A stretch of DNA of 64,000 nt, taken from positions 204 through 64,203 of the IMG/VR virus record IMGVR_UViG_3300010396_000038; one strand, 5' to 3'. Shown in pieces: positions 1-61,302 of the stretch (position 1 is its first letter; each line of letters starts with the position of its first letter). The notes beneath the pieces were generated by a model, which saw only the letters and a list, made by a program, of their open reading frames with translations, was not told the origin of the DNA and did not search any database. The stretch comes from a virus. The position numbers and the translations under genes are program-made.

Positions 1-1863
1 CTCCCACGCGAGGCGCATGGGCATCTCCGACGCCTTGACCGCGAAGGTCGCGGCGTCGATCTCCTGGTAGGGCGACTGCTCGTACACGTGGTCCGAGAAC
101 GGCAGGAAGCTCACCCCGGACATGCGGTCGAAGTGCCGGTAGACGAACGCGCCGACCTCGAGCCACTCCTCCTCGCGGACGTACACGGTGATGGACGGCT
201 TGTGCTCGCACCAGTGCTCGGCGTACTTGAGCCAGAGCTTGAGCTGGTCGATGGCGGTGACCTGGTCCCTGAGGACGGCGGTCCTGGGGGCCTCGATCGG
301 GAACGAGAACACCCAGTTGTGGTCGTCCATGACGTCGTCCTCGGCCGGGACGCCCTGCGCCCAGAGGAAGTTCGACACGGGGTCGAGCTTCGAGCCGCGG
401 TTGGTCCTGACGTAGTGCCGGCTCCACCTCGGGTGGATGCCGGACGCGGCGTCGACCAGCTGCGACACCGTGCCGGACGGCTTCACGCAGGTGATCGCGG
501 CGGACGGGCTGATCCCGAGCCGGGCCGCCCACTCCTCGTTAGTCCTGATCGCCACTGCCTTGAGGTACTCCTGGATGGCCTCCAGCTGCTCCTTGGTGTC
601 GGTGCCGAAGTCGCTCAGGATCGGGTGGTCCATGATGCCGGTGATGGAGACGCCCAGCAGGCGCTCCTCCTCGCAGTTCTTCCTCCAAGCCGCGCTCAGG
701 TACCGGAAGTCGGTGAACGTGCTCTGGATGGTCCCGAGGATCGTCGCCAGGCGCACCTTGCGCTCCAGGTCGGCCAGCGAGTCGGAGTGCCGCGCGATCA
801 CCTCGGACAGGTTGCAGAACTGCCGGTCCCGCAGGATGATCTCGGAGCACGGGTTCGTCCCGAACTCGTGGTCCGGGTCGCGCCGGCCGTTCGCCGCGGC
901 GATCTTCCGCATGCCGGCGCGGTTCACGATGCCGCGCTCGCCTGACCCGGACCGGATCAGCGACGCCCACTCCTCCATGAACCTGGCGACGGGCGGGCGC
1001 TCCTCCCACACGGCCGAGTTGTTCGCCAGCCTGTACTCGGGGTGCTCGACCCACCACTGCCCGGACTTCGCGTCACGCATCCGGTCGTCGTCCGCGTCCG
1101 ACAGGCTGATGAGCGCCGAGCGGCGCACGCCGCCGGAGACGATCACCGCGCCCACCTTGCACATGATGCCGTGGCACTCGATCGTGTAGAGCTTCCGGCC
1201 CTGGGCGGCCCTGAACACGTCGATGACGTACTGGAACAGCTCCTCGAGCGGCTCCGGCCCCGAGGCCCTGCCGCCGAAGGTCTTGAGCCTCGAGCCGGCG
1301 GGGCGCACCCTCGACGTGTCCCGCTTCGGGATCACGCCGGAGTACAGCAGGTGGATCAGCTGCCTGAGCGCCGATGCCCACCCGATCTTCGAGTCGCGCA
1401 CGACGATCGTCGTGTCCGACTCGTACAGCCTCGGGACCTCCGGGAGCTGGCCGACGTACTTCCGCTCCACGGAGAACCCGACGCCGGTCCCGCAGGCCAG
1501 GATGTAGAGCGCCTCGTCGAAGGCCTGCGGCCTGTTCACGGCGAGGTACGCGCAGTTGTAGCCCGCCACGTTGTCCCTCTCGAGCGCCGCGCCGGCGGTC
1601 ATCACGGCCCTCATCGACCCGAGCGCGCCGCCCGGCTCGTGGGGGGCCGCCATGATCGCCTCGCGTAGCTCGTCGCGCACGTCCCCCAGCGTGGTGCCGT
1701 GCTTGCCGGCCTGCCGCTCCATCTGGTCGAGGTACCTGTCGACCGTCTCCGGCCACGTCTCCCTACGGCCTTCGTCCTCGCGCCACCGAGAGTACTTGCT
1801 CCTGTGGATCTGCTGCTGGTAGAGCGTCGGCAGCTCGCCCCAGCGATCCTCCTCATTACTCAA
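1..1863 (-). CDS. ribonucleotide reductase catalytic subunit, probably class II (B12-dependent, NrdJ-like); C-terminus runs off the window start
   Basis: High-GC3 frame read from TTG at 1863 (RBS AAGGAG 5 nt upstream) down to position 1. Translation carries RNR hallmarks (active-site loop ..FGTNPCSEIIL.., Cys-containing ..CHGIMCKVGA..). No NrdB-like small subunit in the window, hence the class II guess. Absent from the ORF track because there is no in-window stop. Confidence 0.75.
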   Translation of the reverse strand, partial: MSNEEDRWGELPTLYQQQIHRSKYSRWREDEGRRETWPETVDRYLDQMERQAGKHGTTLGDVRDELREAIMAAPHEPGGALGSMRAVMTAGAALERDNVAGYNCAYLAVNRPQAFDEALYILACGTGVGFSVERKYVGQLPEVPRLYESDTTIVVRDSKIGWASALRQLIHLLYSGVIPKRDTSRVRPAGSRLKTFGGRASGPEPLEELFQYVIDVFRAAQGRKLYTIECHGIMCKVGAVIVSGGVRRSALISLSDADDDRMRDAKSGQWWVEHPEYRLANNSAVWEERPPVARFMEEWASLIRSGSGERGIVNRAGMRKIAAANGRRDPDHEFGTNPCSEIILRDRQFCNLSEVIARHSDSLADLERKVRLATILGTIQSTFTDFRYLSAAWRKNCEEERLLGVSITGIMDHPILSDFGTDTKEQLEAIQEYLKAVAIRTNEEWAARLGISPSAAITCVKPSGTVSQLVDAASGIHPRWSRHYVRTNRGSKLDPVSNFLWAQGVPAEDDVMDDHNWVFSFPIEAPRTAVLRDQVTAIDQLKLWLKYAEHWCEHKPSITVYVREEEWLEVGAFVYRHFDRMSGVSFLPFSDHVYEQSPYQEIDAATFAVKASEMPMRLAWE

Positions 1864-1986: not shown

Positions 1987-2454
1987 ATGACAGACAAACA
2001 AAAGGCATGGGACGAGCGCTTCCTCGAGATGGCGGAGCTCGTCTCCTACTGGTCCAAGGACCCGAGCACGAAGGTCGGGGCGGTGCTGGTCAGGCCGGAC
2101 AGGACGGTCGCCTCGGTGGGCTACAACGGCTTCCCGAGGAACACGTCCGACTCGGACGAGCTGTACTCCGACAGGGAGGAGAAGTACGCCAGGGTGGTGC
2201 ACGCGGAGGTCAACGCGATCCTCCACGCGCGGGAGCCGGCCGACGGCTACACCCTGTACACGTACCCGGCGTCGATCGCACCGACGTGCGACAGCTGCGC
2301 CGGGTTCGCGATCCAGGCGGGCGTGGCGCGGGTAGTGTGCCTGCGCGACGAGGAGTCGGGCTTCGCGGCGAGGTGGCGGCTGCGCTTCGAGCGCGCCCTC
2401 CGCATGTACGAGGAGGCCGGCGTGGAGGTCACGCTGGTCGAGAGGAGGATCTGA
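1987..2454 (+). CDS. dCMP deaminase (cytidine/deoxycytidylate deaminase family)
   Basis: Zinc-binding deaminase motifs HAEVNAI and PCxxC (PTCDSCAGF); 155 aa. Confidence 0.9.
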   Translation: MTDKQKAWDERFLEMAELVSYWSKDPSTKVGAVLVRPDRTVASVGYNGFPRNTSDSDELYSDREEKYARVVHAEVNAILHAREPADGYTLYTYPASIAPTCDSCAGFAIQAGVARVVCLRDEESGFAARWRLRFERALRMYEEAGVEVTLVERRI

Positions 2455-3011
2455 TGCTGTACGTGATCGAGGGCGTCGACAGGACCGGGAAGTCCACGCT
2501 CGCGAACTACCTGAAGCACACCCAGCAGCCGGGGTTCTACGGCGTCGGCGAGGTGATCCACTGGGAGCGGCCGAAGTGCTCGTCGGCGATCGACGAGTAC
2601 GTCCAGCCGCTCATGGACTACGAGCCGGGCGCCGGCAGGACGGTCGTCTGCGACCGGCACTTCCTGGGGGAGCGGGTGTGGCCGCACATCTTCGGGCGCG
2701 AGAGCCTGATGTCGCTGTCCGAGCAGGAGTGCGTCGAGCTGTTCCTGAGAGACCGGGGCGCCGTGTGCGTCCTGGCGACGCGGGAGCCGGGCGACCTCGA
2801 GGCGGCGTGCGCCGACGAGCCGTGCGCCGGGCGCGCGGCGGAGGCGCAGACGATCTTCGAGGTGCAGGCCGCGCTCTCGAGCCTGGCGTGGTGGCCGTGG
2901 CGGCACGGGGACGACCCGACGAGGCTCATCACCTACGCGCAGGCCCAGGAGGAGGACGCGGCTCACCGCCGAGCCTTCGCCCGGGAGGACCGTAGGATTC
3001 GAAACCGATGA
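2454..3011 (+). CDS. thymidylate-kinase-like dNMP kinase (P-loop)
   Basis: N-terminal LYVIEGVDRTGKST resembles the TMK P-loop (IEGxxGxGKTT). DRHF matches the TMK DRH/Y motif. TGATG start/stop overlap with the upstream gene. Confidence 0.65.
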   Translation: MLYVIEGVDRTGKSTLANYLKHTQQPGFYGVGEVIHWERPKCSSAIDEYVQPLMDYEPGAGRTVVCDRHFLGERVWPHIFGRESLMSLSEQECVELFLRDRGAVCVLATREPGDLEAACADEPCAGRAAEAQTIFEVQAALSSLAWWPWRHGDDPTRLITYAQAQEEDAAHRRAFAREDRRIRNR

Positions 3012-3874
3012 GGTTACACCCAACGTCGGTGCCGGACCTTCGGGTCGGGTACACGCAGATAGTAGAAGAGGTGCTCCACAACGGCTCGCCCGCGAGCCCG
3101 CGCGGGTACAGGACCTGGGAGATCGAGGACGCGTGCTTCCAGGTCGAGGACACGACGCGCGTCCTGCCGGTGGGGGTGGGCCGGGGGATCAAGCCGGAGA
3201 TCGGGGCGGCCGAGTCGCTGCTCCTGTGCGCCGGCCTGGCGAGCCCCAGCCTCCTGGTGTCCGCGAGCGGCGCGTTCCGCAGGTTCGTGGACGGCGGGGT
3301 GCTGCACGGGGCCTACGGGCCCCGCGTGCGCCCACAGATGGACACGGTGGTCAGGAGGCTGACCTCCGACCGCGACTCGAGGCAGGCCGTCGTGCAGGTC
3401 TGGGACCCGCTGTACGACCAGACGGACACGCGCGACCTGCCGTGCACGCTGGGCTTCGGGTTCCGCCTGCGCGACGACGGGCTGCACCTGTCGACGACCA
3501 TGCGCTCCCAGGACGTGATCCTGGGGCTGGCGTACGACGGGTTCATGTTCTGCCAGCTGGGCTGGACGGTCGCGAACGTGCTGGGCGTGGAGCTCGCCTC
3601 CTGGCGGCACCACGCGTACAGTCTGCACGTGTACGAGCGCAACCTGGACCTGGCCGAGAGGCTCGGCCCCACGGACGGGGAGACGGACGTCACGGAGCCG
3701 CTGGGCTTCCGGGGCGAGACCTACGAGGAGGCCCGGGGCAGGGCCGAGCTCGTGTACAACACGACGCCCGGCGCCGCCGGGCCGCTGGACCAGTACTCGG
3801 CCGACGAGCGCTGGTACATCACGACGCTGGCCGGCTGCGACAGGCTGACCAGCAAGTCCAACTTCGAGTCCTGA
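3008..3874 (+). CDS. thymidylate synthase (ThyA) family pyrimidine C5-modifying enzyme; specificity residue Asn->Asp suggests a dCMP substrate (hydroxymethylase or methylase)
   Basis: Gap-free alignment by eye to E. coli ThyA: DSRQAVVQVWD / DSRRIIVSAWN, catalytic LPC / APCH, MRSQDVILGLAYD / QRSCDVFLGLPFN. The Asn177 equivalent is Asp. ATGA overlap with the upstream gene. Confidence 0.8.
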   Translation: MRLHPTSVPDLRVGYTQIVEEVLHNGSPASPRGYRTWEIEDACFQVEDTTRVLPVGVGRGIKPEIGAAESLLLCAGLASPSLLVSASGAFRRFVDGGVLHGAYGPRVRPQMDTVVRRLTSDRDSRQAVVQVWDPLYDQTDTRDLPCTLGFGFRLRDDGLHLSTTMRSQDVILGLAYDGFMFCQLGWTVANVLGVELASWRHHAYSLHVYERNLDLAERLGPTDGETDVTEPLGFRGETYEEARGRAELVYNTTPGAAGPLDQYSADERWYITTLAGCDRLTSKSNFES

Positions 3875-3893
3875 CGGGCTCGAGAAAGGTACC

Positions 3894-4103
3894 ATGACCA
3901 AGACGTTCTCTCTGAACGTGACCACCATCATGGCGGCGATCACCACGATCGTCGGCCTGGCTGTGACCCAGGGGTTCATCACGGACCACACGGCGCAGCT
4001 CGTGACGGGGCTGGCGTCGGCGTTCGCGCCGGTGATCATCCTGGTGGCGCACACGTTCTTCCACGCGAACGTGTCGGCCGCCAAGATCCGGGCCGGCAAG
4101 TAG
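3894..4103 (+). CDS. small hydrophobic membrane protein
   Basis: 69 aa, two predicted TM stretches, high GC3. Confidence 0.4.
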   Translation: MTKTFSLNVTTIMAAITTIVGLAVTQGFITDHTAQLVTGLASAFAPVIILVAHTFFHANVSAAKIRAGK

Positions 4104-5893
4104 TGCCGCGCCTGGCCCAAGACGCGAGGGTCACCCTGGTGGACTCTCTGGAGGACGTCCTCGACCTGAGGGCGTGGCTCGGGGAGCGCCGGGACTGGCT
4201 GGGGTGCGACATCGAGACGACCGGGCTCACGCTCGGCCGCGACGAGATCCGCCTGTTCCAGCTGGGCGACCTCCGCAGGGGCTGGGCGCTGCCGTGGGAC
4301 GACTGGAGGGGCGCCGTCAAGGCGTTCCTCCCGTCGTACCGCGGGCGGATAGTCTTCCACAACTCGGCGTTCGACCTGGCGTTCCTGGACATGGACGGCG
4401 TCCACGTCCCTCAGGTGCAAGTCGACGACACGATGGTCATGGCGCACCTCATCAACCCCGCGGGCAGGATCGGGCTGAAGCCGCTCGCGGCGAAGCTCGT
4501 CGGGCCCGAGGCGCTGCTGGGGAAGGACGACCTGACCGACGCCTTCAAGGCCGGGGGCTGGGACTTCGGGACGATCCCGGTCGACCACCCCGCCTACTAC
4601 GTGTACTCCGCGATGGACACCATGCTGACCGCGGCCCTGGCCGAGGAGCTGTGGCCGACGATCGAGGAGAAGTACAGGGAGATCTACGACATCGAGATGG
4701 GCTGCATCCAGGTCCTCGTGCCGGCGCGCATCAAGGGCATGGCGGTCGACCTCGACTACGTCGCCCGGACGCGCGCCCAGTACGTCTCGGACCTCGAGCA
4801 CCTGCGCGTCCAGATCCCGTGCGAGCCCAGCAAGGACCGCCAGATCAGGGACCTGTTCGACGCCAGGGGCCGGGAGATGGGCCGCGGCCCCCTCGGCACG
4901 TGGTGGCCGTTCAGGACCGAGAAGGGCGAGGTCTCCGTCGACGACGACGCGCTCAAGGCCTTCCACGACGACTTCCCGGACATCATGCCGCCGCTCAGGG
5001 AGTGGCGCAAGAAGTCCCGGCTCGTGAGCGCGTACCTGAACAACATCCTGACCATGAACGTGGACTCGGTGCTGCGGTGCAACATCAGGACGCTCGCGGC
5101 CCGGACGGGCCGCATGAGCATCACCGAGCCGGCCCTGCAGACGCTGCCCAGGGGGCGCGCGATCAGGGACGCGTTCGTGGCGCGCGACGGCCACAAGATC
5201 GTGCAGGCCGACTACAAGCAGGCGGAGCTGAGGGTGTTCGCCTGGTACGCGCAGTGCCGGCCGATGATCGAGGCGTTCCAGCGCGACGAGGACCTGCACT
5301 CGTGGGTCGCGGCGCAGGTGTACGCGAACGGCGACATGTCCGGCTTCACGAAGCTCCAGCGCCAGATCTCGAAGAACGTGCAGTTCGCGCGGATCTACGG
5401 CGCGGGCCCGGCGAAGATCGCCGCGACGGCGGGCGTCGAGGTCGAGGCGATCGAGGACTTCATGCGGCAGTACAACAACCTGTTCCCGGAGGCCCAGGAG
5501 TTCATGCAGGGCCTGATGGGCCAGATGCACCAGAGGCTGCGCGAGGGCGAGGCGTACGTGACCACGCGCCTCGGGCGGCGGCTGGTGGTCGACCGGGACA
5601 AGCTGTACTCGGGGCTGAACTACCTCATCCAGTCGACCGCGACGTCGGACGTGATCAAGCTCAAGCTGTGCGAGCTCGACGCCGCGGGCCTGGGCGAGTA
5701 CATCAGGCTCCCGATCCACGACGAGATCCTGTTCGAGGCGCCGGACGAGGACGTCGACGACCTGCTCGAGACGATCCGCAGGGTCATGCCCGAGCGGCAG
5801 CTGTTCGGGGACTGCCCGCTGGAGATCGACACCGACGTGCTGAGCCGCTGGGGGGACCACTACCCCGACCCGGCGCCGAGGCCGCAAGCGTAA
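4103..5893 (+). CDS. polA: DNA polymerase I family (family A) with 3'-5' exonuclease domain
   Basis: Exo motifs DIETTGL and YVYSAMD. Pol motif A DYKQAELRV, motif B RQISKNVQFARIYG, motif C PIHDEILFE. GTG start. Confidence 0.95.
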   Translation: MPRLAQDARVTLVDSLEDVLDLRAWLGERRDWLGCDIETTGLTLGRDEIRLFQLGDLRRGWALPWDDWRGAVKAFLPSYRGRIVFHNSAFDLAFLDMDGVHVPQVQVDDTMVMAHLINPAGRIGLKPLAAKLVGPEALLGKDDLTDAFKAGGWDFGTIPVDHPAYYVYSAMDTMLTAALAEELWPTIEEKYREIYDIEMGCIQVLVPARIKGMAVDLDYVARTRAQYVSDLEHLRVQIPCEPSKDRQIRDLFDARGREMGRGPLGTWWPFRTEKGEVSVDDDALKAFHDDFPDIMPPLREWRKKSRLVSAYLNNILTMNVDSVLRCNIRTLAARTGRMSITEPALQTLPRGRAIRDAFVARDGHKIVQADYKQAELRVFAWYAQCRPMIEAFQRDEDLHSWVAAQVYANGDMSGFTKLQRQISKNVQFARIYGAGPAKIAATAGVEVEAIEDFMRQYNNLFPEAQEFMQGLMGQMHQRLREGEAYVTTRLGRRLVVDRDKLYSGLNYLIQSTATSDVIKLKLCELDAAGLGEYIRLPIHDEILFEAPDEDVDDLLETIRRVMPERQLFGDCPLEIDTDVLSRWGDHYPDPAPRPQA

Positions 5894-6084: not shown

Positions 6085-6266
6085 CGCCCGGGGCTGATTG
6101 CACGTGCGGCAGGCCGGAGCGCGGCCTGACGTGCCGCTGCACCTGCGACGAGTGCGGGGCCGCGGGGCCCCGAGCGCTCCTGTGGGAGGCGTGGGGCGCG
6201 TACCTGGACAAGGACCTGGTCTGCCAGGCCTGCGGCCACGTGCAGGACATATGGGACTGCGGATGA
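6081..6266 (+). CDS. hypothetical Cys-rich small protein (zinc-ribbon-like)
   Basis: GTGA overlap start. CTCG..CRCTCDECG..CQACGH cysteine pattern. High GC3. Confidence 0.4.
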   Translation: MTPGADCTCGRPERGLTCRCTCDECGAAGPRALLWEAWGAYLDKDLVCQACGHVQDIWDCG

Positions 6267-6901
6267 CCGCCCTGGAGATGGTCAAGGACCCCAGGACGAC
6301 GCTGCGCGGCTTCTCGCTCGACGACCTGGCGCGGTTCACGAGGACGGGCGCGTTCGACGCCGACGACTCGCCGGACTATCGCGTGCTCTACGCCGGGAGG
6401 GACGACGTGCACGGCGCGCTGGCGTACCTGCTGGCGCACACGTCCCGGTCGCTGCGCCTGAACATGTTCGGGTACGACGACGAGGAGCTGGACGCCGTCA
6501 TCGAGAACCTGATCGAGAACGAGCACGTCTTCGTGCAGGGCACGCTGGACCGGTCGCAGGCCGGCGGGGCGCACGAGCGCAAGATCCTGGCCGGCTGGCC
6601 GGAGGCGGTGCGCTCGAGCTTCGCGGTGGGCCAGTCCGCCACCCACCAGATCTCGCACACGAAGGGCGGCGTGATCGACGGCCTCGTGGCCTGGGAGGGC
6701 AGCACGAACTGGTCGGCGTCCGGCGAGGGCACCGGCATCGGGCTGCACGGCGGGGCGAACGCCGCGGGCTACAAGGCCCAGAACAACACGCTGGCCGTAC
6801 ACGTCAACCCCGCGGAGGTGCGCCGGTTCCAGGACGAGCTGGACGAGGAGCACGCGGTCGCGCTACAGCAGCAGATCGCGCAGGAGAGGAAGGAGGGATG
6901 A
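6263..6901 (+). CDS. phospholipase D family (HKD motif) nuclease-like protein
   Basis: HTKGGVID matches the HxK(x4)D PLD/Nuc catalytic motif. ATGA overlap start; an alternative ATG lies at 6251. Confidence 0.7.
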   Translation: MTALEMVKDPRTTLRGFSLDDLARFTRTGAFDADDSPDYRVLYAGRDDVHGALAYLLAHTSRSLRLNMFGYDDEELDAVIENLIENEHVFVQGTLDRSQAGGAHERKILAGWPEAVRSSFAVGQSATHQISHTKGGVIDGLVAWEGSTNWSASGEGTGIGLHGGANAAGYKAQNNTLAVHVNPAEVRRFQDELDEEHAVALQQQIAQERKEG

Positions 6902-7065: not shown

Positions 7066-7288
7066 CCTGGGCAAGATCCGGATCGTAGTGCGGGCGTCGC
7101 CGCCCGGGCTGCGCACGGTGGCCTCGTTCACGCGGCAGGGCCTCGAGGACAAGCTCGAGGCCGGCGACTGGACGGTGGACAGCACCCACGAGCGGACGAT
7201 CCCGATGAGGATCGGGCCCCTCACGTACCACCAGACGCAGCACTACGCGTACGTGGTGCCACGTGCTACAATCTCGAGCCATGACTGA
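7049..7288 (+). CDS. hypothetical protein (79 aa)
   Basis: High GC3; ends in an ATGA-type overlap with the next gene. Confidence 0.4.
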   Translation: MPPSSSLGKIRIVVRASPPGLRTVASFTRQGLEDKLEAGDWTVDSTHERTIPMRIGPLTYHQTQHYAYVVPRATISSHD

Positions 7289-8087
7289 CAAGATAAACCA
7301 GGTCCTCGTCATCGGGGACGTACACGGACACGCCGACAGGCTGCGGGCGCTCCTCGAGCAGGAGCGGCCGCACGAGCGCGGCGCGAGGGTCATCCAGCTG
7401 GGCGACCTCGGGCACTTCGGCGAGCACACCATGGTCGGCGACCTGGAGTGCTGGCGGATGGCGCTAGAGGGCGAGGTCGACACGGTGCTCTGGGGGAACC
7501 ACGACCGCGCGGTCATCGACACGCGCCACATGTTCGGCGGGTACTGCTCACCGCCGCCCGAGACGGTCGAGGTCATCAACCAGGTCGACGGCCAGGGCAG
7601 GCTCAAGCTCGCCGAGGAGGCGCACGGCTGGCTCCTGACGCACGCCGGCCTGCACCCGCAGATCCGGTACATGCCGGAGGCCGGCGAGGTGGACAGGACG
7701 GACCCGCGGGCGCTGGCCGACTGGATCAACACGAACCCGCCCTCGCCGTTCCGGCCCAGGCTGTACGGCGGGTCGCGCAGCATCGTGGATGCGATCGGGC
7801 CGCACCGCGGCGGCGGGTCGACGTTCGGCGGCGTCCTCTGGCGCGACATCCAGGAGAAGCTGTACGACGGGGTCCCGCAGGTCTTCGGACACTCCGCCAA
7901 CCGCAAGCACGCGGTACGCGGCGAGGCCGACAGGTGGTACTGCGTGGACATCGGCGGCAAGGGCGACCGCCCGAGCGAGGACTGCCTGGCGGCCATCTGG
8001 CTGCCGTCGCAGGAGATCGTGCGGGTGGACCTGGACCTGATGACGGAGGAGATCCGCGGGGACCTGTCGGAGAGGGACCTGCTGTGA
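7281..8087 (+). CDS. calcineurin-like metallophosphoesterase (Ser/Thr phosphatase / lambda-PPase fold)
   Basis: Motifs GDVHG, GDLGHFG and GNHD. Confidence 0.8.
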   Translation: MTDKINQVLVIGDVHGHADRLRALLEQERPHERGARVIQLGDLGHFGEHTMVGDLECWRMALEGEVDTVLWGNHDRAVIDTRHMFGGYCSPPPETVEVINQVDGQGRLKLAEEAHGWLLTHAGLHPQIRYMPEAGEVDRTDPRALADWINTNPPSPFRPRLYGGSRSIVDAIGPHRGGGSTFGGVLWRDIQEKLYDGVPQVFGHSANRKHAVRGEADRWYCVDIGGKGDRPSEDCLAAIWLPSQEIVRVDLDLMTEEIRGDLSERDLL

Positions 8088-8521
8088 GACCGCTGCTCCT
8101 GGCCGAGGCGCCGGCGCGCGACGACAACTGGCGGGAGCCGCTCAACGGGCGGGCCGGCCAGAACCTGATGAGGCACCTCGGCGTCGAGCCGACGTACGAG
8201 AACCTCAGGGAGCGGTTCGACGTCCTGAACGCCTCCGAGCGGCTCGAGGACGCGTACCCCTGGTCCGCGCCCGCGGCGAGGCTCCGGTGGACCGTGTGGC
8301 GCCTGCACGAGCCCACAGAGCGCCTCGTCGTGGTGTGCCTCGGCCGGCGCGCGGCGGCCGCGGTCGGCCTGCGGCCCGACCACCCCTGGGGCGAGTGGAC
8401 GGAGGTCGGCGACGACCTCGTCACGGCGCTCCCGCACCCCAGCGGCAGGTGCCGAGTGTACAACGACCCGAACTTCCGCGCGGTCGCCCGCGCGGTGCTG
8501 GAGGAGGCGCTGGATGCGTGA
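8084..8521 (+). CDS. uracil-DNA glycosylase superfamily protein (family-4-like)
   Basis: LLLAEAPA..REPLNGRAGQNLMRHLG resembles the GEAPG..G.PFVGxAG motif; C-terminal HPSGRC resembles the HPS motif. GTGA overlap start. Confidence 0.5.
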   Translation: MRPLLLAEAPARDDNWREPLNGRAGQNLMRHLGVEPTYENLRERFDVLNASERLEDAYPWSAPAARLRWTVWRLHEPTERLVVVCLGRRAAAAVGLRPDHPWGEWTEVGDDLVTALPHPSGRCRVYNDPNFRAVARAVLEEALDA

Positions 8522-8804
8522 CATCAAGATAGTCGACGACACCGACAGCGGCGACTGGCAGGCGATCTACGTGGACGGCGCGCTCCTCTACGAGGACCAC
8601 TACCTCGAGGCGGACCGGGTCCTGGACGTGCTCGGGGTCGGGTTCGAGTACGTCCGCGCCCTCACGGACGACTCGGGCCACTTCCCGAAGAGGTTCGCCG
8701 ACGTGACGACGGAGAGGGAGTCGAGGCGGCGCGAGCTCCTGGAGGAGGCGGAGCGCCTGCGCGAGCAGGCGGAGATCCTCGAGGCGGAGGCGGCGGGTGT
8801 CTAG
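8514..8804 (+). CDS. hypothetical protein (96 aa)
   Basis: High GC3; acidic C-terminal coiled-coil-like segment. Confidence 0.45.
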   Translation: MRDIKIVDDTDSGDWQAIYVDGALLYEDHYLEADRVLDVLGVGFEYVRALTDDSGHFPKRFADVTTERESRRRELLEEAERLREQAEILEAEAAGV

Positions 8805-9495
8805 CGACGGGCTCGGTGACCGCATCAAGCGGTACGAGAACGCGTACAGGCACCACCTGACGCCGAGGTCGTGCGTGGCGGTGCGGGTGGACGGGCGCGC
8901 GTTCCACACCTGGACCAAGCGGTGCGACCGCCCGTTCGACGACAGGCTTCACCGGGCCATGGTGCACGCCACGCGGGCGACGATCGGCGAGATGCAGGGC
9001 GTCAAGCTGGCCTACACCCAGTCGGACGAGGCGTCGTTCCTGCTGACCGACTTCGACACGCACGAGACTCAGGGGTGGTTCGGGTACAACCTGCAGAAGC
9101 TGGCGTCGGTCTCGGCGTCGGCGTTCACCGCGCACTTCAACCAGGCGACGCTGCCCTGGGCCTCGAGGACGCCGGGGCCGGCGACGTTCGACGCCCGCGC
9201 CTTCGTGGTGCCGACGGACGACGCGCCCAACGCGTTCGTCTGGCGGCAGCGGGACTGGGAGCGGAACAGCGTCCAGATGCTTGCGAGGTCGCGGTACTCG
9301 CACGCGGAGCTCCACGGGCTGTCCGCGGACGACGTCAAGCTGGCGCTGACCGCCGACGGGACGCCCTGGGAGGACCTGCCCGACCGGCACAGGCACGGCA
9401 CCTTCGTGACCAGGGACGGCGACGAGATCTGCCGGCGGCTGGAGTACGATGAGATATCGAGGCTGTGCAGCCCGAACCCAGAGGAGGAGTCTTGA
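8797..9495 (+). CDS. Thg1-like protein (tRNA-His guanylyltransferase family, 3'-5' nucleotide polymerase)
   Basis: N-terminal RIKRYE..VAVRVDGRAFHTWTK matches the Thg1 FEYVRxFE..VVRxDGRxFHxFxK. Conserved acidic SDE motif present. GTG start. Confidence 0.7.
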   Translation: MSSDGLGDRIKRYENAYRHHLTPRSCVAVRVDGRAFHTWTKRCDRPFDDRLHRAMVHATRATIGEMQGVKLAYTQSDEASFLLTDFDTHETQGWFGYNLQKLASVSASAFTAHFNQATLPWASRTPGPATFDARAFVVPTDDAPNAFVWRQRDWERNSVQMLARSRYSHAELHGLSADDVKLALTADGTPWEDLPDRHRHGTFVTRDGDEICRRLEYDEISRLCSPNPEEES

Positions 9496-10409
9496 CGATC
9501 AACAGGTCCGGCCAGACGTTCGCGCTCATGGAGGCGCACGACTTCAGCGCGCACGACGTGGGCCGGTTCGCGGTCGAGCGGCAGACGATCTGGCACAAGC
9601 GCACGATCCTCGGCGAGCCCGGGCCGTGGACGGAGGACCCGGCGCTCCAGAGGTTCCACTTCTGCAACGTGCAGCGCGACCTGGACCGAGGGACGGTCTA
9701 CCTCGCGACGCAGCTCGCGGCGCACGCGGGCGCCCCGCGGGCGGAGAGGCTGCTGAACACGGCGATGTACAGGCAGCTGAACAGGCGCGACCTCTGGGAG
9801 TCGGGGGCCGCCGGCTGGATCGCGCCCACCGCCGACGGCGTGCTGGGCGCGTGCGAGGCGCTGGAACGACACCGGCAGGCGGGCAACTCGATCGGCCCCA
9901 CGTCGTGGATGCCGTCGACCGGCACCGTCTCGGGCTGCCTCCGGGAGGTCGGCCTCGGCGTCGTCGAGCACCTGGGCGAGCTGGACGAGCTGTGCGACTC
10001 CGTCACCGACGGCTCCCTCGAGCCGGTGCAGAAGTACATGAAGAAGAACTGCCGGCGCCTGACGGGCATGGTCGGGTTCCAGGTGTGCCTGGACCTGACG
10101 TACACCTACCCGAACCTCTCGGACGACGTCTGGGTGTGGCTGTACGGCGGCCACGAGGACACCGGCTCGCACTGGACCGCGCGCCGGCTGCGCCCCGACA
10201 TGACCACGCTGGAGTGCTGCCGGTGGCTCAGGGACACGCAGGACGCGTGGCTGGCGCCGCACGGCTGGGGCGACGTCGCGTGGGAGGGCAAGCCGAGGCT
10301 GTCCCTGGCGGACGTGGAGCACCTGCTGTGCGAGTACAGGAAGTGGGTGCGGGCGACCCTCACCAGGGGCGCGAAGCGCAAGTACCGCGGGCTCGGGGAG
10401 GGGTCGTGA
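9492..10409 (+). CDS. hypothetical protein, possibly aGPT-pyrophosphorylase-like DNA base-modification enzyme
   Basis: TTG start with RBS GAGGAGGAG and a TTGA overlap. Conserved-looking block EPGPWTEDPALQRFHFCNVQRDLDRGTVYL. Family assignment comes from memory only. Confidence 0.3.
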   Translation: MTINRSGQTFALMEAHDFSAHDVGRFAVERQTIWHKRTILGEPGPWTEDPALQRFHFCNVQRDLDRGTVYLATQLAAHAGAPRAERLLNTAMYRQLNRRDLWESGAAGWIAPTADGVLGACEALERHRQAGNSIGPTSWMPSTGTVSGCLREVGLGVVEHLGELDELCDSVTDGSLEPVQKYMKKNCRRLTGMVGFQVCLDLTYTYPNLSDDVWVWLYGGHEDTGSHWTARRLRPDMTTLECCRWLRDTQDAWLAPHGWGDVAWEGKPRLSLADVEHLLCEYRKWVRATLTRGAKRKYRGLGEGS

Positions 10410-13417: not shown

Positions 13418-13625
13418 CTCGACTGAGCGCGCGTACGGCCCGACCACGCCGGAGGACGTCGCGCGGCTGCGCAAGGTCTACCCCGTGGAGACCGCGGGGC
13501 GCACGGACGAGTACCTGGCACAGGTGATCGAGGGCGCCAAGGACTGGATCGGGCAGATCAAGTGGTCCTGGACGGTCGTGGCCAGCAGCCACCTACGGAC
13601 CGGGAGGTACAGCCAAAATGGCTAG
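13404..13625 (+). CDS. hypothetical protein (73 aa)
   Basis: GTG start overlapping the upstream gene; high GC3. Confidence 0.4.
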   Translation: MSVDSSTERAYGPTTPEDVARLRKVYPVETAGRTDEYLAQVIEGAKDWIGQIKWSWTVVASSHLRTGRYSQNG

Positions 13626-14661
13626 GGTCGACGTCGAGCGCCTGGACGCGCTCGTGGGCGAGGGCTGGCTCAAGGTCCAGCACCACCCAGAGTTCCCGCT
13701 CAGGATCTACAACTACACGGCGCAGACGCAGTTCAAGCGGCACTGGACGGACCTGACGGTCATGTGCCGCGGGCTGATCGTCACGGACGGCGGCCACGTG
13801 GTCGCGAGGCCGTTCCCCAAGTTCTTCAACCACGACGAGGTCGACGGCCTCCCGGACGAGCCGTTCACCGTGACGGAGAAGCTCGACGGCTCGCTCGGGA
13901 TCATGTTCCCGGGGCCGGACGAGGAGCTCCACGTCGCGTCGCGCGGCAGCTTCGTCTCGGAGCAGGCCAGGATGGGCTCGATCATGCTCGAGGAGTACCT
14001 CGACGAGCACGGCGAGCTCCGCTGGCGCGCCGGCACGACGACGCTGTTCGAGATCATCTACCCGGAGAACCGGATCGTGGTCGACTACGGGGGACGGCGG
14101 GAGCTGGTGTACCTGGCCACGATCGACAACGAGACGGGCGACGACGCCCCGCCCGAGCTGGAGACGCGGTGGGAGGGCGCCAGGGCCCGGACGTACGACT
14201 CGGACGACATCGAGGCGCTCTCGCGGCTGACGGCCCCGAACAGCGAGGGCTTCGTGGCGCGGTTCTCGTCGGGCCTGCGGGTCAAGATCAAGCTGGACGA
14301 GTACGTGCGGCTGCACAGGCTCCGCTCCCAGCTGTCCGCGAGGTACGTCTGGGACTGCCTCAGGAACGGCGAGGACGTCGTCGGCGTGATCGGGCACCTG
14401 CCCGACGAGGTCTACGGGGAGGTGATCAGGGTCCGCGACGAGATCCAGGCGGAGCACGACCTGCTAGTCAAGCGGTGCCGCGCGGTCTTCGAGGGCCGGC
14501 CGACGGCCGACCGAAAGGGGACGGCGCTGTACTTCATAGGGTCGAGGGCCTGCACGAGCGTGCTGTTCGCCATGCTCGACGGTAAGCCGTGGGAGGACCT
14601 GGCGTGGCGCCAGGTCGAGCCCGAGCACAAACCTATCTGGGAGGACGCGGAGTGGGACTGA
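13618..14661 (+). CDS. RNA ligase, T4 Rnl1 family (tRNA repair ligase)
   Basis: RIYNYTAQ..CRGLIV..ARPFPKFFNHDE..TEKLDGSLGIMF aligns with T4 Rnl1 RIFSYNYAS..CRGIMFE..SRPMEKFFNLNE..TKEDGSLVS, including the nucleotidyltransferase motif I lysine. Confidence 0.8.
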   Translation: MARVDVERLDALVGEGWLKVQHHPEFPLRIYNYTAQTQFKRHWTDLTVMCRGLIVTDGGHVVARPFPKFFNHDEVDGLPDEPFTVTEKLDGSLGIMFPGPDEELHVASRGSFVSEQARMGSIMLEEYLDEHGELRWRAGTTTLFEIIYPENRIVVDYGGRRELVYLATIDNETGDDAPPELETRWEGARARTYDSDDIEALSRLTAPNSEGFVARFSSGLRVKIKLDEYVRLHRLRSQLSARYVWDCLRNGEDVVGVIGHLPDEVYGEVIRVRDEIQAEHDLLVKRCRAVFEGRPTADRKGTALYFIGSRACTSVLFAMLDGKPWEDLAWRQVEPEHKPIWEDAEWD

Positions 14662-15161: not shown

Positions 15162-15349
15162 TGACGCTCGAGGAGTGGCAGGCGGGCGTCACGGGCGTCG
15201 AGCGGGTCGGCGACGGCTACCGCTACGCGAGCGGCGGCGTGACGTACCACGGGACCGTGGCGGCGCTCAGGACGGTCCTGAGGTCGCTGGACGAGCGCGT
15301 GTGGGCGCCGGCGCTTGGACCGGGACGAACGACGAACGGAGAGACATGA
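15158..15349 (+). CDS. hypothetical protein (63 aa)
   Basis: ATGA overlap start. Confidence 0.4.
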   Translation: MMTLEEWQAGVTGVERVGDGYRYASGGVTYHGTVAALRTVLRSLDERVWAPALGPGRTTNGET

Positions 15350-15819
15350 GCACGATCACGCCGCCCAAGGAGGCGGTTCACGGGCGCAAGTCCGTCTTCC
15401 TGGCGGGCGGCATCACGGGCTGTCCGGACTGGCAGACGGACGCCGTCGACATGCTGGAGAGGGAGCACCACAGGGCCGGGATGGCGGGCGTGCCGTTCGA
15501 CGTGTACAACCCGCGGAGGCCGGACTTCGACACGTCCGACCCCGGCATGACGGTGCAGCAGATCCACTGGGAGCACAGGCACCTGCGCAAGGCGGCCGTG
15601 ATCCTGTTCTGGTTCTGCGCCGAGACCCTGCAGCCGATCTCGCTGTACGAACTCGGTGCGTGGTCCATGACGAACAAGCCGATCGTGGTGGGCTCGCACC
15701 CGGACTACCCGCGCCGGCAGGACGTGGTGATCCAGACGATGCTGTCGCGGCCGGACGCCTACGTCATAGGCGACCTGGAGGAGACCGTGCGGCTGGCCGA
15801 GAGGACGCTGCTCACGTGA
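15346..15819 (+). CDS. nucleoside 2-deoxyribosyltransferase-like / DNPH1-like protein
   Basis: SVFLAGGITGCPDWQ Rossmann-like N-terminus, typical of the NDT/DNPH1 fold. ATGA overlap start. Confidence 0.45.
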   Translation: MSTITPPKEAVHGRKSVFLAGGITGCPDWQTDAVDMLEREHHRAGMAGVPFDVYNPRRPDFDTSDPGMTVQQIHWEHRHLRKAAVILFWFCAETLQPISLYELGAWSMTNKPIVVGSHPDYPRRQDVVIQTMLSRPDAYVIGDLEETVRLAERTLLT

Positions 15820-16169: not shown

Positions 16170-16673
16170 GTGACGAATAACGGAGAGACCAACCCGAAGG
16201 TCGACGCGGCGACCAGGGACGGCAAGGCGCCGCTCGACCTTCTGGAGAACACGGCCGACGAGGCCATCGCCTGGGCGCTCAAGGACGGCGCGACCAAGTA
16301 CGGGAAGCAGAACTACAGGACGATCCCGATCTACATGTCGACGTACGCGGCGGCGATCCGCCGGCACGTCGGCGCGTGGCTCGACGGCGAGGACGACGCC
16401 GCCGACTCGGGACTGCACCACCTCGCCCACGTCGGGGCGAACCTGCACGTCGTGTTCGGCGCGATGGACGCCGGCACGCTCGTGGACGACCGCGGGCCGC
16501 AGGAGCGGTCCCCGGAGCAGGAGGCCCGCTCGACGGCGTCGAACGGGCAGCACTCCCGCGGACTGGGCGCGGAGGGCTGGAGGGAGCGGCTCTACCCCTG
16601 CGCGGACTGCGGTAAGGTCAAGAACGCGCGGCCGGACATGTACTGCGGCGTGTGCGTGGAGGACTATCAATGA
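16170..16673 (+). CDS. dATP/dGTP diphosphohydrolase N-terminal-domain-like protein
   Basis: KAPLDLLENTADEAIAWALKDGATKYGKQNY resembles the K.R.DL.P..AL..VA.VL..GA.KY..NW signature, recalled from memory. C-terminal CxxC..CxxC. Confidence 0.4.
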   Translation: MTNNGETNPKVDAATRDGKAPLDLLENTADEAIAWALKDGATKYGKQNYRTIPIYMSTYAAAIRRHVGAWLDGEDDAADSGLHHLAHVGANLHVVFGAMDAGTLVDDRGPQERSPEQEARSTASNGQHSRGLGAEGWRERLYPCADCGKVKNARPDMYCGVCVEDYQ

Positions 16674-16861
16674 CGGAGCAAGACCTGCACGACGTCAAGG
16701 GGCTCGTGCACTACCTCAACACGGCGCTCGGCCGGCAGCACGAGGGGCAGGACGTCGAGGCCGAGGTCGTCCTGCACAGCAGGAAGACCGGCGACTGGGT
16801 CGGCCGCGTCGCCTACAACGGCGTGGACCAGTACGTCTTCGTGCCGGGTGACGACCGGTGA
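16670..16861 (+). CDS. hypothetical protein (63 aa)
   Basis: ATGA overlap start. Confidence 0.4.
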   Translation: MTEQDLHDVKGLVHYLNTALGRQHEGQDVEAEVVLHSRKTGDWVGRVAYNGVDQYVFVPGDDR

Positions 16862-17430
16862 GCGAGATCGAGCTGTACTCGGGGGAGTACCTGGACCTCG
16901 AGCGCCCGGACCCGAGGCGGATCAACCTGGACGACATCGCGGTGGGGCTCTCGAGGGAGCACCGGTACGCGGGCCAGTCCAGGCTGCCGTACACGGTCGC
17001 GGAGCACGCGTGCCTCGTCCAGAGGCGAGTGCGCGACGAGGGCGGCACCGCGCTGGACCAGCTGGCGGCGCTCCACCACGACGACTCGGAGGCCCTGATC
17101 AAGGACGTCCCGGCGCCGCTGAAGAGGCTGCTGCCGGAGTACAGGGCGGTCGAGACGCGGGTCATGGCGGCGATCCTTACGGCCCTCGGGCTCGACGGCC
17201 TCGGCGTCGACGACGAGATCGTGCACGACGCGGACATGTGGGCGAGGGCGCAGGAGGCGCACGAGCTCATGCCGTCCAGGGGCGTAGGCGTGCACTGGGA
17301 CCTCGAGTACGTCTGGGACGGCAAGTGGCGGCGCCTCGGTCAGGTGGACGCCGACGACGCGCGGGTCCGGTGGCTCGCGACGCACTACCTGCTGATGGCC
17401 ATGTCCGGCCTGAGAAACGTGGAGGTCTGA
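16858..17430 (+). CDS. HD-domain phosphohydrolase (YfbR-like 5'-deoxynucleotidase family)
   Basis: H..EHA..V and LHHDDSEALIKD HD motifs. GTGA overlap start. Confidence 0.65.
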   Translation: MSEIELYSGEYLDLERPDPRRINLDDIAVGLSREHRYAGQSRLPYTVAEHACLVQRRVRDEGGTALDQLAALHHDDSEALIKDVPAPLKRLLPEYRAVETRVMAAILTALGLDGLGVDDEIVHDADMWARAQEAHELMPSRGVGVHWDLEYVWDGKWRRLGQVDADDARVRWLATHYLLMAMSGLRNVEV

Positions 17431-19860: not shown

Positions 19861-20217
19861 ATGGGGTACCTGAACCAGCAGCTCGCCCAGCAGAGGGGGG
19901 TCTACAACGTGGACCCCCACGCCCTGCTGGGCGAGGACCGGGCGCGGTACGTCAGGGAGAACGTGCTCGCGGCGATCAAGGAGCTCACGGAGGTCCTCGA
20001 CTGCTTCGAGTGGAAGCCCTGGCACCGGGGCATCCCGGGCTACGCGATGGGGATGTCGGTGGAGCCGCGGCAGCACATAGCCGAGGAGCTAGTCGACATC
20101 ATGAAGTTCGTGTTCAACGTCGCGCTGGTGGAGGGCCTGTCGGACGAGGACCTCGAGGCGACGTTCGAGTACAAGGCCCGACGCAACGCCGAGAGGCACG
20201 AGGGCGCGAGGATGTAG
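19861..20217 (+). CDS. all-alpha NTP pyrophosphohydrolase (MazG / dimeric-dUTPase-like)
   Basis: E..E.L..CFEWKPWH motif typical of MazG/HisE-like NTP-PPases; 118 aa. Confidence 0.5.
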   Translation: MGYLNQQLAQQRGVYNVDPHALLGEDRARYVRENVLAAIKELTEVLDCFEWKPWHRGIPGYAMGMSVEPRQHIAEELVDIMKFVFNVALVEGLSDEDLEATFEYKARRNAERHEGARM

Positions 20218-24453: not shown

Positions 24454-24701
24454 TCGAGCTCCTGTGGCCGAACGGCGAGGTGTCGTCCGGCGAGACGTGG
24501 CGGGACGTCGAGGACTCGGTGAGGTCCTCGCAGTGGTCCCCGTACAAGACGCGGGCCGAGTTCAGGCGCGAGATGCGCCGCAGGGCCCTGGTGTGGAGCG
24601 GGCAGACCGTCCGCACCGGCCGGACCTCCGAGTCCTTCATCAAGGCGCTCGGGGCAGTCAACATGTTCATGATCGTGGAGGACGGCGATGTCGCAGAGTA
24701 G
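24450..24701 (+). CDS. hypothetical small protein (83 aa) ending in ..EDGDVAE
   Basis: ATGA overlap start; sandwiched between the amidoligase and the C26 peptidase; acidic C-terminus. Confidence 0.45.
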   Translation: MIELLWPNGEVSSGETWRDVEDSVRSSQWSPYKTRAEFRREMRRRALVWSGQTVRTGRTSESFIKALGAVNMFMIVEDGDVAE

Positions 24702-26200: not shown

Positions 26201-26211
26201 GAGGTCAGAGC

Positions 26212-61284: not shown

Positions 61285-61302
61285 TCGCCTCCCTTAGGTG
61301 AG

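Follow-up and report, generated by a model that had tools for sequence, protein, structure and literature searches.

The ThyA-family gene at 3008-3874 on the plus strand raises the question of which nucleotide its product modifies, what it makes, and whether that product reaches the phage DNA. An earlier note had placed the gene inside a T4-like set whose members would synthesize a C5-modified pyrimidine nucleotide and exclude the canonical one. We examined the gene and its surroundings in the window, the whole 64,000-nucleotide stretch analyzed here, which is half of a 128-kb contig. Pfam scans covered the called plus-strand open reading frames of at least 100 amino acids and ten large minus-strand frames.

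Family and active-site residues of the ThyA homolog

The open reading frame begins with ATG, encodes 288 amino acids, obtained a codon-bias gene caller score of 156 with a GC3 of 0.96, and overlaps at its start the upstream kinase gene (2454-3011) by 4 bp. The protein matched the Pfam family Thymidylat_synt (PF00303) with 54.6 bits against a gathering cut-off of 24.3 (E-value 1e-14), with residues 15-217 covered, and fell into the PHROG 'thymidylate synthase' families. A MAFFT alignment with E. coli ThyA was free of gaps from Cys146 to Tyr209 (64 columns, 17 identities), an interval in which query and E. coli numbering coincide. The gap-free alignment described in the earlier note is limited to this core, because one indel lies upstream of it, between Arg126 and Cys146. 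The key residues of the protein are Glu69 (58 in E. coli), Tyr103 (94), Arg125 (126), Asp143, Cys146, Thr147, Arg166, Ser167, Asp169, Asp177, His207 and Tyr209, and the catalytic set (Cys146, Glu58, Tyr94, Arg166, Asp169, His207 and Tyr209 in E. coli numbering, which is used below) is complete in the query and near-invariant across 265 homologs. The query motif LGLAYD pairs with LGLPFN of ThyA, which sets an Asp (codon GAC, 3536-3538) at the position of Asn177. The same Asp was found in all 265 nearest homologs retrieved by two independent database searches, and a HMMER alignment to the sequence of the MilA crystal structure, independent of MAFFT, likewise paired it with an Asp of MilA. All three comparisons thus agree with the exchange at the specificity site that the earlier note had described, and the alignment against ThyA, T4 gp42, SPO1 gp29 and XP12 that it had proposed returned Asp177 together with retention of the folate-holding Asp169.

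Published work on the family links N177D to the use of dCMP, L143D/E to hydroxymethylation and D169N to a 5-hydroxy product (PMC13326640), names sites 177 and 147 as the best discriminators of modified-cytosine viral contigs (PMC8670742), and associates Ser167 and Arg126 with deoxyribonucleotides and Ala and Lys at the same sites with ribonucleotides (PMC5175136). At these positions the query (R126-D143-T147-S167-D169-D177) is identical to T4 gp42 in six of six residues, and 247 of the 265 nearest homologs carry exactly this signature. By contrast, E. coli ThyA has Leu143, His147 and Asn177, SPO1 gp29 and the M6-like Ab19 have Asn147 and Asn177, the RB69-like enzymes and that of Thanatos have Glu143 and Asn169, MilA has Lys126 and Ala167, and XP12 has Asn143 and Pro147. 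The rule for site 143 is correlational, the methylase of XP12 carrying Asn there and not Leu.

The query therefore combines the features of a dCMP hydroxymethylase, namely Asp177, an acidic Asp143 with Asp169 kept, and Ser167 with Arg125 (Arg126 in E. coli). Among characterized enzymes it is nearest to SPO1 gp29 (33% identity over 216 aa, phmmer 2e-24) and to MilA (32% over 200 aa), a CMP 5-hydroxymethylase that was also the top solved-structure match (PDB 5b6d, 2e-16), while identity was 25-26% to E. coli ThyA and XP12 and 25% over 136 aa to T4 gp42 (phmmer 1e-5). Because gp42 is this distant and SPO1 gp29 and MilA are closer, the protein is, judged from its sequence, a functional analog inside the hydroxymethylase branch and not a gp42 ortholog; with just 25% identity to gp42, the assignment as a dCMP hydroxymethylase rests on convergent signature residues and on clade placement. 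The earlier note had given the product as 5-hm-dC, 5-m-dC or a derivative. The cytosine-type Asp enzyme agrees with this, and the choice narrows to 5-hm-dC because of Asp143, Asp169, Ser167 and Arg126 and because the nearest characterized relatives are hydroxymethylases. In our view gene 3008-3874 quite likely encodes a folate-dependent deoxycytidylate 5-hydroxymethyltransferase that opens a route for 5-hydroxymethylcytosine (hmC) into DNA, and since its active-site residues match those of enzymes making 5-hydroxymethyl-dCMP, the phage DNA probably contains this base.

Neighboring genes and the predicted route into DNA

Directly upstream, 2454-3011 (+) encodes a TMK-like P-loop nucleotide kinase with GxxxxGKS and DRH motifs, a candidate 5-hm-dCMP kinase. 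Its matches to TMK families were weak or under the curated cut-offs (Pfam 6e-4, TIGR00041 6e-6, PHROG 761 3e-5), and a PDB search by sequence alone gave nothing significant. The AF2 model (pLDDT 87) matched YorR (TM 0.67), PPK2s and thymidylate kinases among PDB structures in Foldseek, and as modeled the protein adopts an NMP-kinase fold. On its other side lie a dCMP deaminase (1987-2454, +; HAE and C-x-x-C zinc motifs, Pfam dCMP_cyt_deam_1 2.5e-18, PHROG 174 2e-43) and a class II (B12-type) ribonucleotide reductase (RNR) on the minus strand (1-1863), which is cut by the window start (Pfam Ribonuc_red_lgC, RNR-II_ins_dom and RNR_Alpha). The ThyA gene is followed by a DNA polymerase I with 3'-5' exonuclease and PolA domains (4103-5893, +; the identical gene of locus L016 has PF01612 and PF00476). 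The order of P-loop kinase, Asp-type ThyA and DNA polymerase I is kept in four of four metagenomic relatives examined, with kinase homologs directly upstream of ThyA in L001, L002, L004 and L019 and a polymerase gene following ThyA in all relatives examined. A module of kinase, Asp-type ThyA, dCMP deaminase and polymerase is likewise present in the cultured or assembled actinophages Gordonia phage GodonK and DSL-LC01; in the window and in L019 the deaminase gene directly neighbors that of the kinase-ThyA pair, and in DSL-LC01 and GodonK it is found near ThyA. Such a conserved kinase-ThyA-polymerase order is what one would expect if a modified dCTP were made before replication. A megablast search of 1987-5893 against 50,697 phage records returned zero matches, and the phage is thus without a near relative among sequenced ones.

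In the chemistry that we propose, Cys146 would attack C6 of dCMP, as the conserved residues suggest, and Asp177 and Thr147 would read the N3/N4 face of cytosine, where thymidylate synthase uses Asn177 and His147 for uracil. Ser167 and Arg126 would select the 2'-deoxy sugar, and methylene-THF, held by Asp169 and Gly173, would donate the one-carbon unit. Since Asp143 takes the place of the water-excluding Leu143 of thymidylate synthase in the pocket, the exocyclic methylene would presumably be quenched by water, with 5-hm-dCMP and THF as products, as opposed to the 5-methyl-dCMP and DHF that would arise by hydride transfer. The translationally coupled kinase could then form the diphosphate and a host NDP kinase 5-hm-dCTP, which the phage PolA would incorporate, while the RNR and the dCMP deaminase would feed and balance the nucleotide pools. 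More speculatively, dCTP may be lowered by one of two all-alpha NTP pyrophosphatase-like proteins.

The small all-alpha MazG/dimeric-dUTPase-like NTP pyrophosphatase at 19861-20217 (+; Pfam dUTPase_2 5e-5, PHROG dUTPase and NTP-PPase families) is a candidate dCTPase or dUTPase with homologs in L019 (70% identity) and DSL-LC01 (38%). Its top PDB match was dCTP pyrophosphatase 1 (DCTPP1), at an E-value of 0.05 too weak for the protein to be named a dCTPase, and this name was dropped. Upstream of it are a MazZ-like protein with a dATP/dGTP diphosphohydrolase N-terminal domain (16170-16673, +; Pfam dGTP_diPhyd_N 6e-22, PHROG 801), kept in L002 and L019, a deoxyribonucleoside 5'-monophosphate phosphatase (16858-17430, +; PHROG 318 6e-46), HD-type according to the earlier note and without a match at E<=0.01 in the Pfam scan, and a nucleoside 2-deoxyribosyltransferase-like protein of the DNPH1/NDT superfamily (15346-15819, +; Pfam Nuc_deoxyri_tr2 2e-22; PDB 4mcj, an uncharacterized protein, 1e-6). 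The uracil-DNA-glycosylase-superfamily gene at 8084-8521 (+; Pfam UDG 2.5e-5; homologs in L001, L002 and L019) belongs to the conserved replication module of the clade. A 2-aminoadenine (Z) genome was considered and rejected because the MazZ-like N-terminal domain was the only element of it present; PurZ/DatZ genes were not detected by the Pfam scans of frames of at least 100 aa in this window. Pfam or PHROG matches recovered every neighbor that the earlier note had named (dCMP deaminase, TMK-like kinase, RNR, MazG-like protein, 5'-nucleotidase, NDT-like protein and dGTP_diPhyd_N protein). Its reading of these genes as one modified-nucleotide pathway is supported by the conserved kinase-ThyA-polymerase order, but several of the downstream genes, such as those for the MazZ-like protein and the HD phosphatase, are part of the clade's general module and not of a dedicated operon.

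Alternative products, extent of replacement and decoration

Other activities of the family have to be weighed against hydroxymethylation of dCMP. An XP12-type methyltransferase would form 5-methyl-dCMP by hydride transfer from THF and lead to 5-methylcytosine in DNA; engineered ThyA N177D makes 5-methyl-dCMP with Asp177 alone, as cited in PMC8670742, and XP12, too, has a dCMP deaminase alongside its enzyme. We regard this product as improbable, since residue 143 is Asp in the query as in all tested hydroxymethylases and Asn in XP12, residue 147 is Thr and not Pro, XP12 ranks with the references farthest from the query (25%, phmmer 5e-12, compared with 2e-24 for SPO1 gp29), and DHFR, encoded two genes from the methylase in XP12, was not found among the window's frames of at least 100 aa. 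It is harder still to believe that the gene specifies an ordinary thymidylate synthase producing dTMP, as GenBank and IMG annotate its homologs: membership in Pfam Thymidylat_synt and the database names speak for it, but Asn177, His147 and Leu143 are all swapped (Asp177, Thr147, Asp143), Asn177 occurs in none of the 265 homologs, and every NCBIfam equivalog cut-off is missed by a wide margin (the best, TIGR03283, with 66.8 against 174.55; others with 30-41 against 108-427, e.g. 41 against 327). A flavin-dependent 5-hydroxy-dCMP synthase of the RB69 gp48 / DLP3 gp80 type would have Asp177, an acidic residue 143 and Thr147 in common with the query; the exchange D169N is missing, however, with Asp169 invariant in 265 of 265 homologs where the RB69-like NBG1 and Thanatos have Asn, and this activity is hardly credible. 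Finally, MilA as the best solved-structure match, an NDT/DNPH1-superfamily gene 11.5 kb downstream that might act as MilB, and bacterial homologs in Streptomyces and Micromonospora could point to a CMP (ribonucleotide) hydroxymethylase like MilA/BcmA in a small-molecule or RNA pathway. This is very unlikely given that the query has Ser and Arg in place of the ribo-specific Ala167 and Lys126 and that its gene is flanked by nucleotide kinase and DNA polymerase genes as part of a replication module.

A different fate of the same product is suggested by the HMUDK_hel-family protein at 9492-10409 (+), which may read or modify 5-hydroxymethylpyrimidine in DNA. A PDB search with its sequence alone gave nothing significant, and its helix-hairpin-helix DNA-glycosylase / amino-acid:DNA-transferase fold was, like the kinase fold, obtained by comparison of AF2 models. 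Its homologs lie mostly beside Asn-type dUMP hydroxymethylases (Ab19, L020, L021, L025, L026, ViI and SP10), and a search for related loci with the HMUDK_hel alignment returned seven loci, two with a nearby ThyA, both Asn-type and too few for statistics. 5-hm-dCMP could thus be an intermediate that the adjacent deaminase turns into 5-hm-dUMP, with thymine replaced or decorated. dCMP deaminases can take 5-substituted dCMP as substrate, and both the position of the deaminase gene near ThyA here and in relatives and the company of the HMUDK_hel homologs favor such a route. Yet phages with 5-hydroxymethyluracil (hmU) simply use an Asn177 enzyme (5 of 5 hmU-type loci examined), the deaminase appears to be a generic pool-balancing gene because it also adjoins Asn-type (Ab19) and methylase-type (XP12) enzymes, and neither the 5-HMUDK kinase domain (PF18748) nor the ADDT transferase (PF18724) was detected in the Pfam scans of the window (frames of at least 100 aa); we hold conversion to hmU to be unlikely. 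The same scans yielded no ThyX or Asn-type ThyA, TET/JBP oxygenase or T4-type glucosyltransferase. From the set that marks thymidine hypermodification (5-HMUDK, ADDT/aGPT-Pplase2, and an Asn177 enzyme or TET/JBP), the window holds HMUDK_hel alone, with a ThyA that is Asp-type.

If, as we favor, hmC is the base that enters DNA, it might be decorated later. In Microbacterium phage Koji, independently, an Asp-type ThyA occurs together with a P-loop kinase next to it and with an HMUDK_hel gene, and this combination gives a hint that the kinase/transferase chemistry may exist in a form directed at 5-hmC. In addition, about six glycosyltransferases or sugar-nucleotide enzymes are clustered just past the right end of the window. 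That this myovirus lineage decorates 5-hmC after replication by means of the HMUDK_hel protein, which is otherwise encoded chiefly by thymidine-hypermodifying phages, and/or the glycosyltransferase cluster, as a cytosine counterpart of thymidine hypermodification, is conceivable but rather doubtful; if true, the modification would reach about one base in three in DNA of ~70% GC. As candidate hypermodification enzymes we also considered the products of the amidoligase, GATase and gamma-glutamyl-cyclotransferase-like genes at 23296-26906, but set them aside as unlinked because these genes are 20 kb distant and were not seen in the 10-kb ThyA flanks of any relative.

As to the extent of replacement, a C5-cytosine DNA methyltransferase at 20273-21511 (+; Pfam DNA_methylase 6e-13) is conserved in the closest relative (71% identical to the L019 homolog) and hard to square with complete hmC substitution, which is argued against because the methylase would be left without a substrate in its own genome. 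A gp56-type dCTPase was not identified in the window, where just the two all-alpha NTP pyrophosphatase-like candidates were found. Neither complete replacement nor exclusion of the canonical nucleotide, both implied by the earlier note, is shown by these genes.

Comparison with known systems

The nearest named relatives are the 'thymidylate synthase' genes of GodonK-like phages and of Actinomycetia phage DSL-LC01 (33-40% identity), which agree with the query in all six signature residues and in the module formed by the kinase, ThyA, dCMP deaminase and PolA genes; near its ThyA, DSL-LC01 also has genes for a glycosyltransferase and a UDP-galactopyranose mutase as well as one that is MazG-like. 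A literature search found no DNA-modification data for these phages. If our reading is true, large high-GC actinophage-like myoviruses, cultured Gordonia phages included, replace cytosine with 5-hydroxymethylcytosine, and a systematic mis-annotation as thymidylate synthase would be corrected, with the signature serving as a simple, checkable rule for substrate and product in the ThyA family. Cytosine hydroxymethylation in phage DNA is a known anti-restriction trick, and such replacement would alter how the genomes behave toward restriction enzymes, CRISPR nucleases, sequencing chemistries and cloning.

MilA from Streptomyces rimofaciens, which hydroxymethylates a cytosine nucleotide, has Asp177, Asp143 and Thr147 in common with the query, but its ribose-selecting Ala176 and Lys133 (E. 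coli 167 and 126) are Ser and Arg here, and it serves antibiotic biosynthesis and not phage DNA replication. The dUMP hydroxymethylases of the SPO1 gp29 and M6/ViI type share Asp143, Asp169, Ser167 and Arg126 with the query and have an HMUDK_hel-family gene in the same genomes; they differ by the uracil-type Asn177 and Asn147, where the query has the cytosine-type Asp177 and Thr147, and by a 5-hmdU DNA kinase and an amino-acid:DNA transferase that the window lacks. The Asp177-type thymidylate-synthase homologs of the modified-cytosine contigs recovered by MetaGPA (eLife 2021), likewise from uncultured viruses, have Asp at 177 and a residue other than His at 147 as in the query; a carbamoyltransferase was not found here.

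A predicted functional parallel is T4, whose gp42 agrees with the query in the six diagnostic residues and in the catalytic Cys, Glu, Tyr, His and Tyr, and works with the gp1 dNMP kinase, the Cd deaminase and the gp56 dCTPase. Kinase and dCMP deaminase are partners here as well, and the predicted logic, a modified dCMP made before replication, is alike. The description of the gene set as T4-like holds by analogy and not as homology, given the distance to gp42 and that homologs of gp56, td, frd and the alpha/beta-glucosyltransferases were not found in the window; moreover, the polymerase is of family A here and of family B in T4, and the window, unlike the T4 system, carries a C5-DNA methylase. 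Compared with these systems, the gene is predicted to encode a known kind of enzyme in an actinophage-like, high-GC uncultured lineage in which it is routinely labeled 'thymidylate synthase', while a new hypermodification of hmC would be compatible with the HMUDK_hel protein and the glycosyltransferase cluster close by, and the co-occurrence of a glycosylase-fold HMUDK_hel protein with an Asp-type ThyA marks a concrete place to search for hmC-based modifications of cytosine.

Residue signature and enzyme assignment

The ThyA-family ORF at 3008-3874 (+), hereafter the query, encodes 288 aa, and its ATG start has a 4-bp overlap with the stop of the preceding gene. Its product is far over the gathering score of Pfam Thymidylat_synt, matches several PHROG 'thymidylate synthase' families and falls well under every cut-off of the NCBIfam thymidylate-synthase equivalogs. 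In the alignment with E. coli ThyA, whose numbering is used throughout, LGLAYD of the query lies opposite LGLPFN, which puts an Asp, encoded by GAC at 3536-3538, at residue 177. The earlier note had described this alignment as gap-free, which holds from Cys146 to Tyr209, where residue numbers are identical, but not between Arg126 and Cys146, where there is one indel. Its claim of Asp at the equivalent of ThyA Asn177 was borne out, since a HMMER alignment to the MilA crystal-structure sequence, independent of MAFFT, likewise placed Asp177 opposite an Asp of MilA, and all 265 homologs pooled from two different searches carry Asp177.

Position 177 sets the base, with Asn for uracil and Asp for cytosine; Asp177-type ThyA homologs rank first as markers of viral contigs with modified cytosine, and position 147 is the second-best discriminator (PMC8670742). 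The type of product correlates with the residue at 143 (methyl with Leu, hydroxymethyl with Asp or Glu), and Asn169 marks the flavin-dependent 5-hydroxy-dCMP synthases (PMC13326640). Enzymes acting on 2'-deoxy substrates have Ser167 and Arg126, in place of which the CMP-preferring MilA and BcmA have Ala and Lys (PMC5175136). The query was aligned with E. coli ThyA, a MilA segment and references from annotated phage records, including T4 gp42, SPO1 gp29, XP12, an RB69-like Mosigvirus and Shewanella phage Thanatos. At positions 126, 143, 147, 167, 169 and 177 it reads R-D-T-S-D-D, and among these reference enzymes only the dCMP hydroxymethylase T4 gp42 is equal at all six. The corresponding residues are R-L-H-S-D-N in E. 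coli thymidylate synthase, R-D-N-S-D-N in the dUMP hydroxymethylases of SPO1 (gp29) and the M6-like phage Ab19, R-N-P-S-D-D in the dCMP methylase of XP12, R-E-T-S-N-D in the 5-hydroxy-dCMP synthases of RB69-like NBG1 and Thanatos, and K-D-T-A-D-D in the CMP hydroxymethylase MilA. The exact signature of the query recurs in 247 of the 265 homologs.

The closest characterised enzymes are SPO1 gp29 (33% identity over 216 aa) and MilA (32% over 200 aa), both hydroxymethylases, compared to 25-26% identity with E. coli ThyA, XP12 and T4 gp42. By sequence, the query is thus placed in the hydroxymethylase branch, with cytosine-type base-reading and deoxy-type sugar-reading residues, a combination that makes a dCMP hydroxymethylase its fairly likely identity. 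The interpretation of the surrounding genes as a set producing a C5-modified pyrimidine was largely right, and the residue signature and overall similarity narrow it to 5-hm-dCMP synthesis. Concerning the alternative of a methylase, XP12 carries a DHFR gene two genes from its dCMP methylase, while no DHFR was found in the 64-kb window. Since the hydroxymethylase reaction regenerates THF, this absence, seen for half a genome, is weak evidence in favor of a hydroxymethylase. As dCMP hydroxymethylases are textbook enzymes and Asp177-type ThyA is an already known marker, the query joins an already known enzyme type.

Genome context and actinophage relatives

G+C content is about 70% along the whole window, and no near-identical match was present among 50,697 deposited phage genomes. 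Genes called by a purpose-written script scoring codon bias form a tightly packed map with frequent 4-bp start/stop overlaps, consisting of a single gene at 1-1863 (-), a block from 1987 to 38559 (+) and a block from 38625 to the window end (-). The latter contains contractile-tail genes (baseplate J, P2 gpI, tail collar) and a weak, below-threshold match to the tail-sheath Gp18 domain. Since proteins identical to window products are encoded on a 128,203 bp JGI contig, the window covers roughly half the genome of an uncultured myovirus that is large and high in GC. At 22301-23176 (+), a tyrosine recombinase (Phage_integrase family, 1.5e-15) lies within the replication/nucleotide block of this otherwise lytic-style-looking phage. 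A NUDIX/cytidylyltransferase-like protein (34519-35415, +) precedes a nicotinamide phosphoribosyltransferase (NAMPT_N plus NAPRTase; 35420-36877, +), and the two look like a phage NAD+ salvage pair. The three tRNA genes are Trp-CCA (28018-28089, +), Arg-CCT (34372-34445, +) and Glu-CTC (61302-61375, -). A Thg1-like 3'-5' nucleotidyltransferase (8797-9495, +) and a T4-type RNA ligase (13618-14661, +), together with RtcB and a CCA-adding enzyme in three metagenomic relatives (L001, L002, L004), suggest a tRNA-repair toolkit.

Among named phages, Actinomycetia phage DSL-LC01 and the GodonK group of Gordonia phages come closest by protein similarity. The ThyA homologs of DSL-LC01 (within region L006 10976-23500) and GodonK (within region L007 8028-12840), deposited as 'thymidylate synthase', share the six-residue signature of the query, and their Asp177, Asp143 and Thr147 indicate that they are probably dCMP hydroxymethylases. 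A few kb downstream in DSL-LC01, a glycosyltransferase, a UDP-galactopyranose mutase and a MazG-like gene suggest glycosylated hmC. Because our literature search found no report of hmC in actinophages and the cultured relatives are labelled 'thymidylate synthase', the hydroxymethylase prediction for the query is useful and cheap to test, if unsurprising.

Candidate genes for further modification

A protein encoded at 9492-10409 (+) matches Pfam HMUDK_hel at 1e-31, and its homologs include ViI gp160, the C-terminal part of the SP10 5-hmdU DNA kinase gp186, an Ab19 gene beside the dUMP hydroxymethylase, and gp52 of Microbacterium phage Koji. These phage groups are those known for thymidine hypermodification (PMC5889632, PMC8989533). 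Distant HMUDK_hel members lie in classic clusters with an Asn-type ThyA, an ADDT transferase and a kinase domain, whereas in the window phage, its closest relative (L019) and Koji the partner is an Asp-type ThyA, a pairing that suggests that the family handles 5-hydroxymethylpyrimidines in general. In Koji (MG925345; L015 1364-5220), the P-loop 'Ploopntkinase3' gp53 overlaps gp52, and the 'thymidylate synthase' gp47 has the R-D-T-S-D-D dCMP-hydroxymethylase signature. Koji independently combines a cytosine-type enzyme with a kinase and a helical domain that are split over two genes. As the kinase and transferase of thymidine hypermodification are absent from the window, no pathway can be written for the HMUDK_hel protein. 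The stretch 23296-26906 (+) groups an Amidoligase_2 gene (23296-24453) and a peptidase C26/class-I glutamine amidotransferase gene (24736-25632) with a small ORF and, at 26472-26906, an ORF weakly resembling gamma-glutamyl-cyclotransferase; amidoligase and amidotransferase genes co-occur with thymidine hypermodification genes (PMC8989533).

Just past the right end of the window, in the same genome (L018 1-10000), about six glycosyltransferases of GT2 and GT1 types are clustered with two methyltransferases, among them a Methyltransf_24 gene. Contiguous with this cluster are a Methyltransf_23 gene (61385-62032, -), an NAD-dependent epimerase/dehydratase (62388-63443, -) and an RF-1-domain protein (63440-63829, -). 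Phage enzymes of both GT-A and GT-B types glycosylate 5-hmC in DNA (bioRxiv 10.1101/2023.12.21.572611), and the cluster could act on hmC-DNA or, since it adjoins tail-fibre genes, just as well on virion proteins. Hypermodification based on hmC, via the HMUDK_hel protein or the glycosyltransferases, would be more novel than the hydroxymethylase itself; the evidence permits it without strongly supporting it. The genome, predicted to make 5-hm-dCTP, also encodes a C5-cytosine DNA methyltransferase (20273-21511, +) with a 71% identical homolog in the closest relative. If hmC fully replaced cytosine, this enzyme would have no substrate there and serve no purpose; either the replacement is perhaps partial, or other DNA may be its target.

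The kinase-ThyA-polymerase module

Upstream of the query lie a dCMP deaminase (1987-2454, +) and, directly adjacent, a P-loop protein of 185 aa (2454-3011, +) that carries GxxxxGKS and DRH motifs. With B. subtilis YorR, PPK2 enzymes and thymidylate kinases as structural matches, its AlphaFold model (pLDDT 87) shows the fold of a nucleotide-monophosphate kinase. Downstream follows a family-A DNA polymerase. Four metagenomic relatives, with a ThyA 50-55% identical, keep the order kinase, ThyA(Asp), PolA, and DSL-LC01 and GodonK have kinase, ThyA(Asp), dCMP deaminase, PolA. Beyond the polymerase are a weak PLD-like protein (6251-6901, +), a calcineurin-like metallophosphoesterase (7281-8087, +) and a UDG-superfamily protein (8084-8521, +); relatives keep the latter two, adjoining RuvC-like and SNF2 helicase genes. 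The neighbours named in the earlier note are all present, namely a class II RNR, an NDT/DNPH1-like protein, a MazZ-like domain protein, a dNMP phosphatase and a small protein of MazG/dimeric-dUTPase type. Among solved structures the last of these is closest to dCTP pyrophosphatase 1, a match (E 0.05) too weak to demonstrate the exclusion of dCTP. Several of these genes were found again in relatives.

The arrangement of kinase, ThyA and PolA is that expected if the modified monophosphate were phosphorylated by the kinase and then used by the phage's own polymerase. The same logic is followed by RB69 with gp48 and its kinase (PMC13326640), and by T4, where the hydroxymethylase gp42 is joined by the kinase gp1. 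The query is predicted to share the function of gp42 without being its ortholog.
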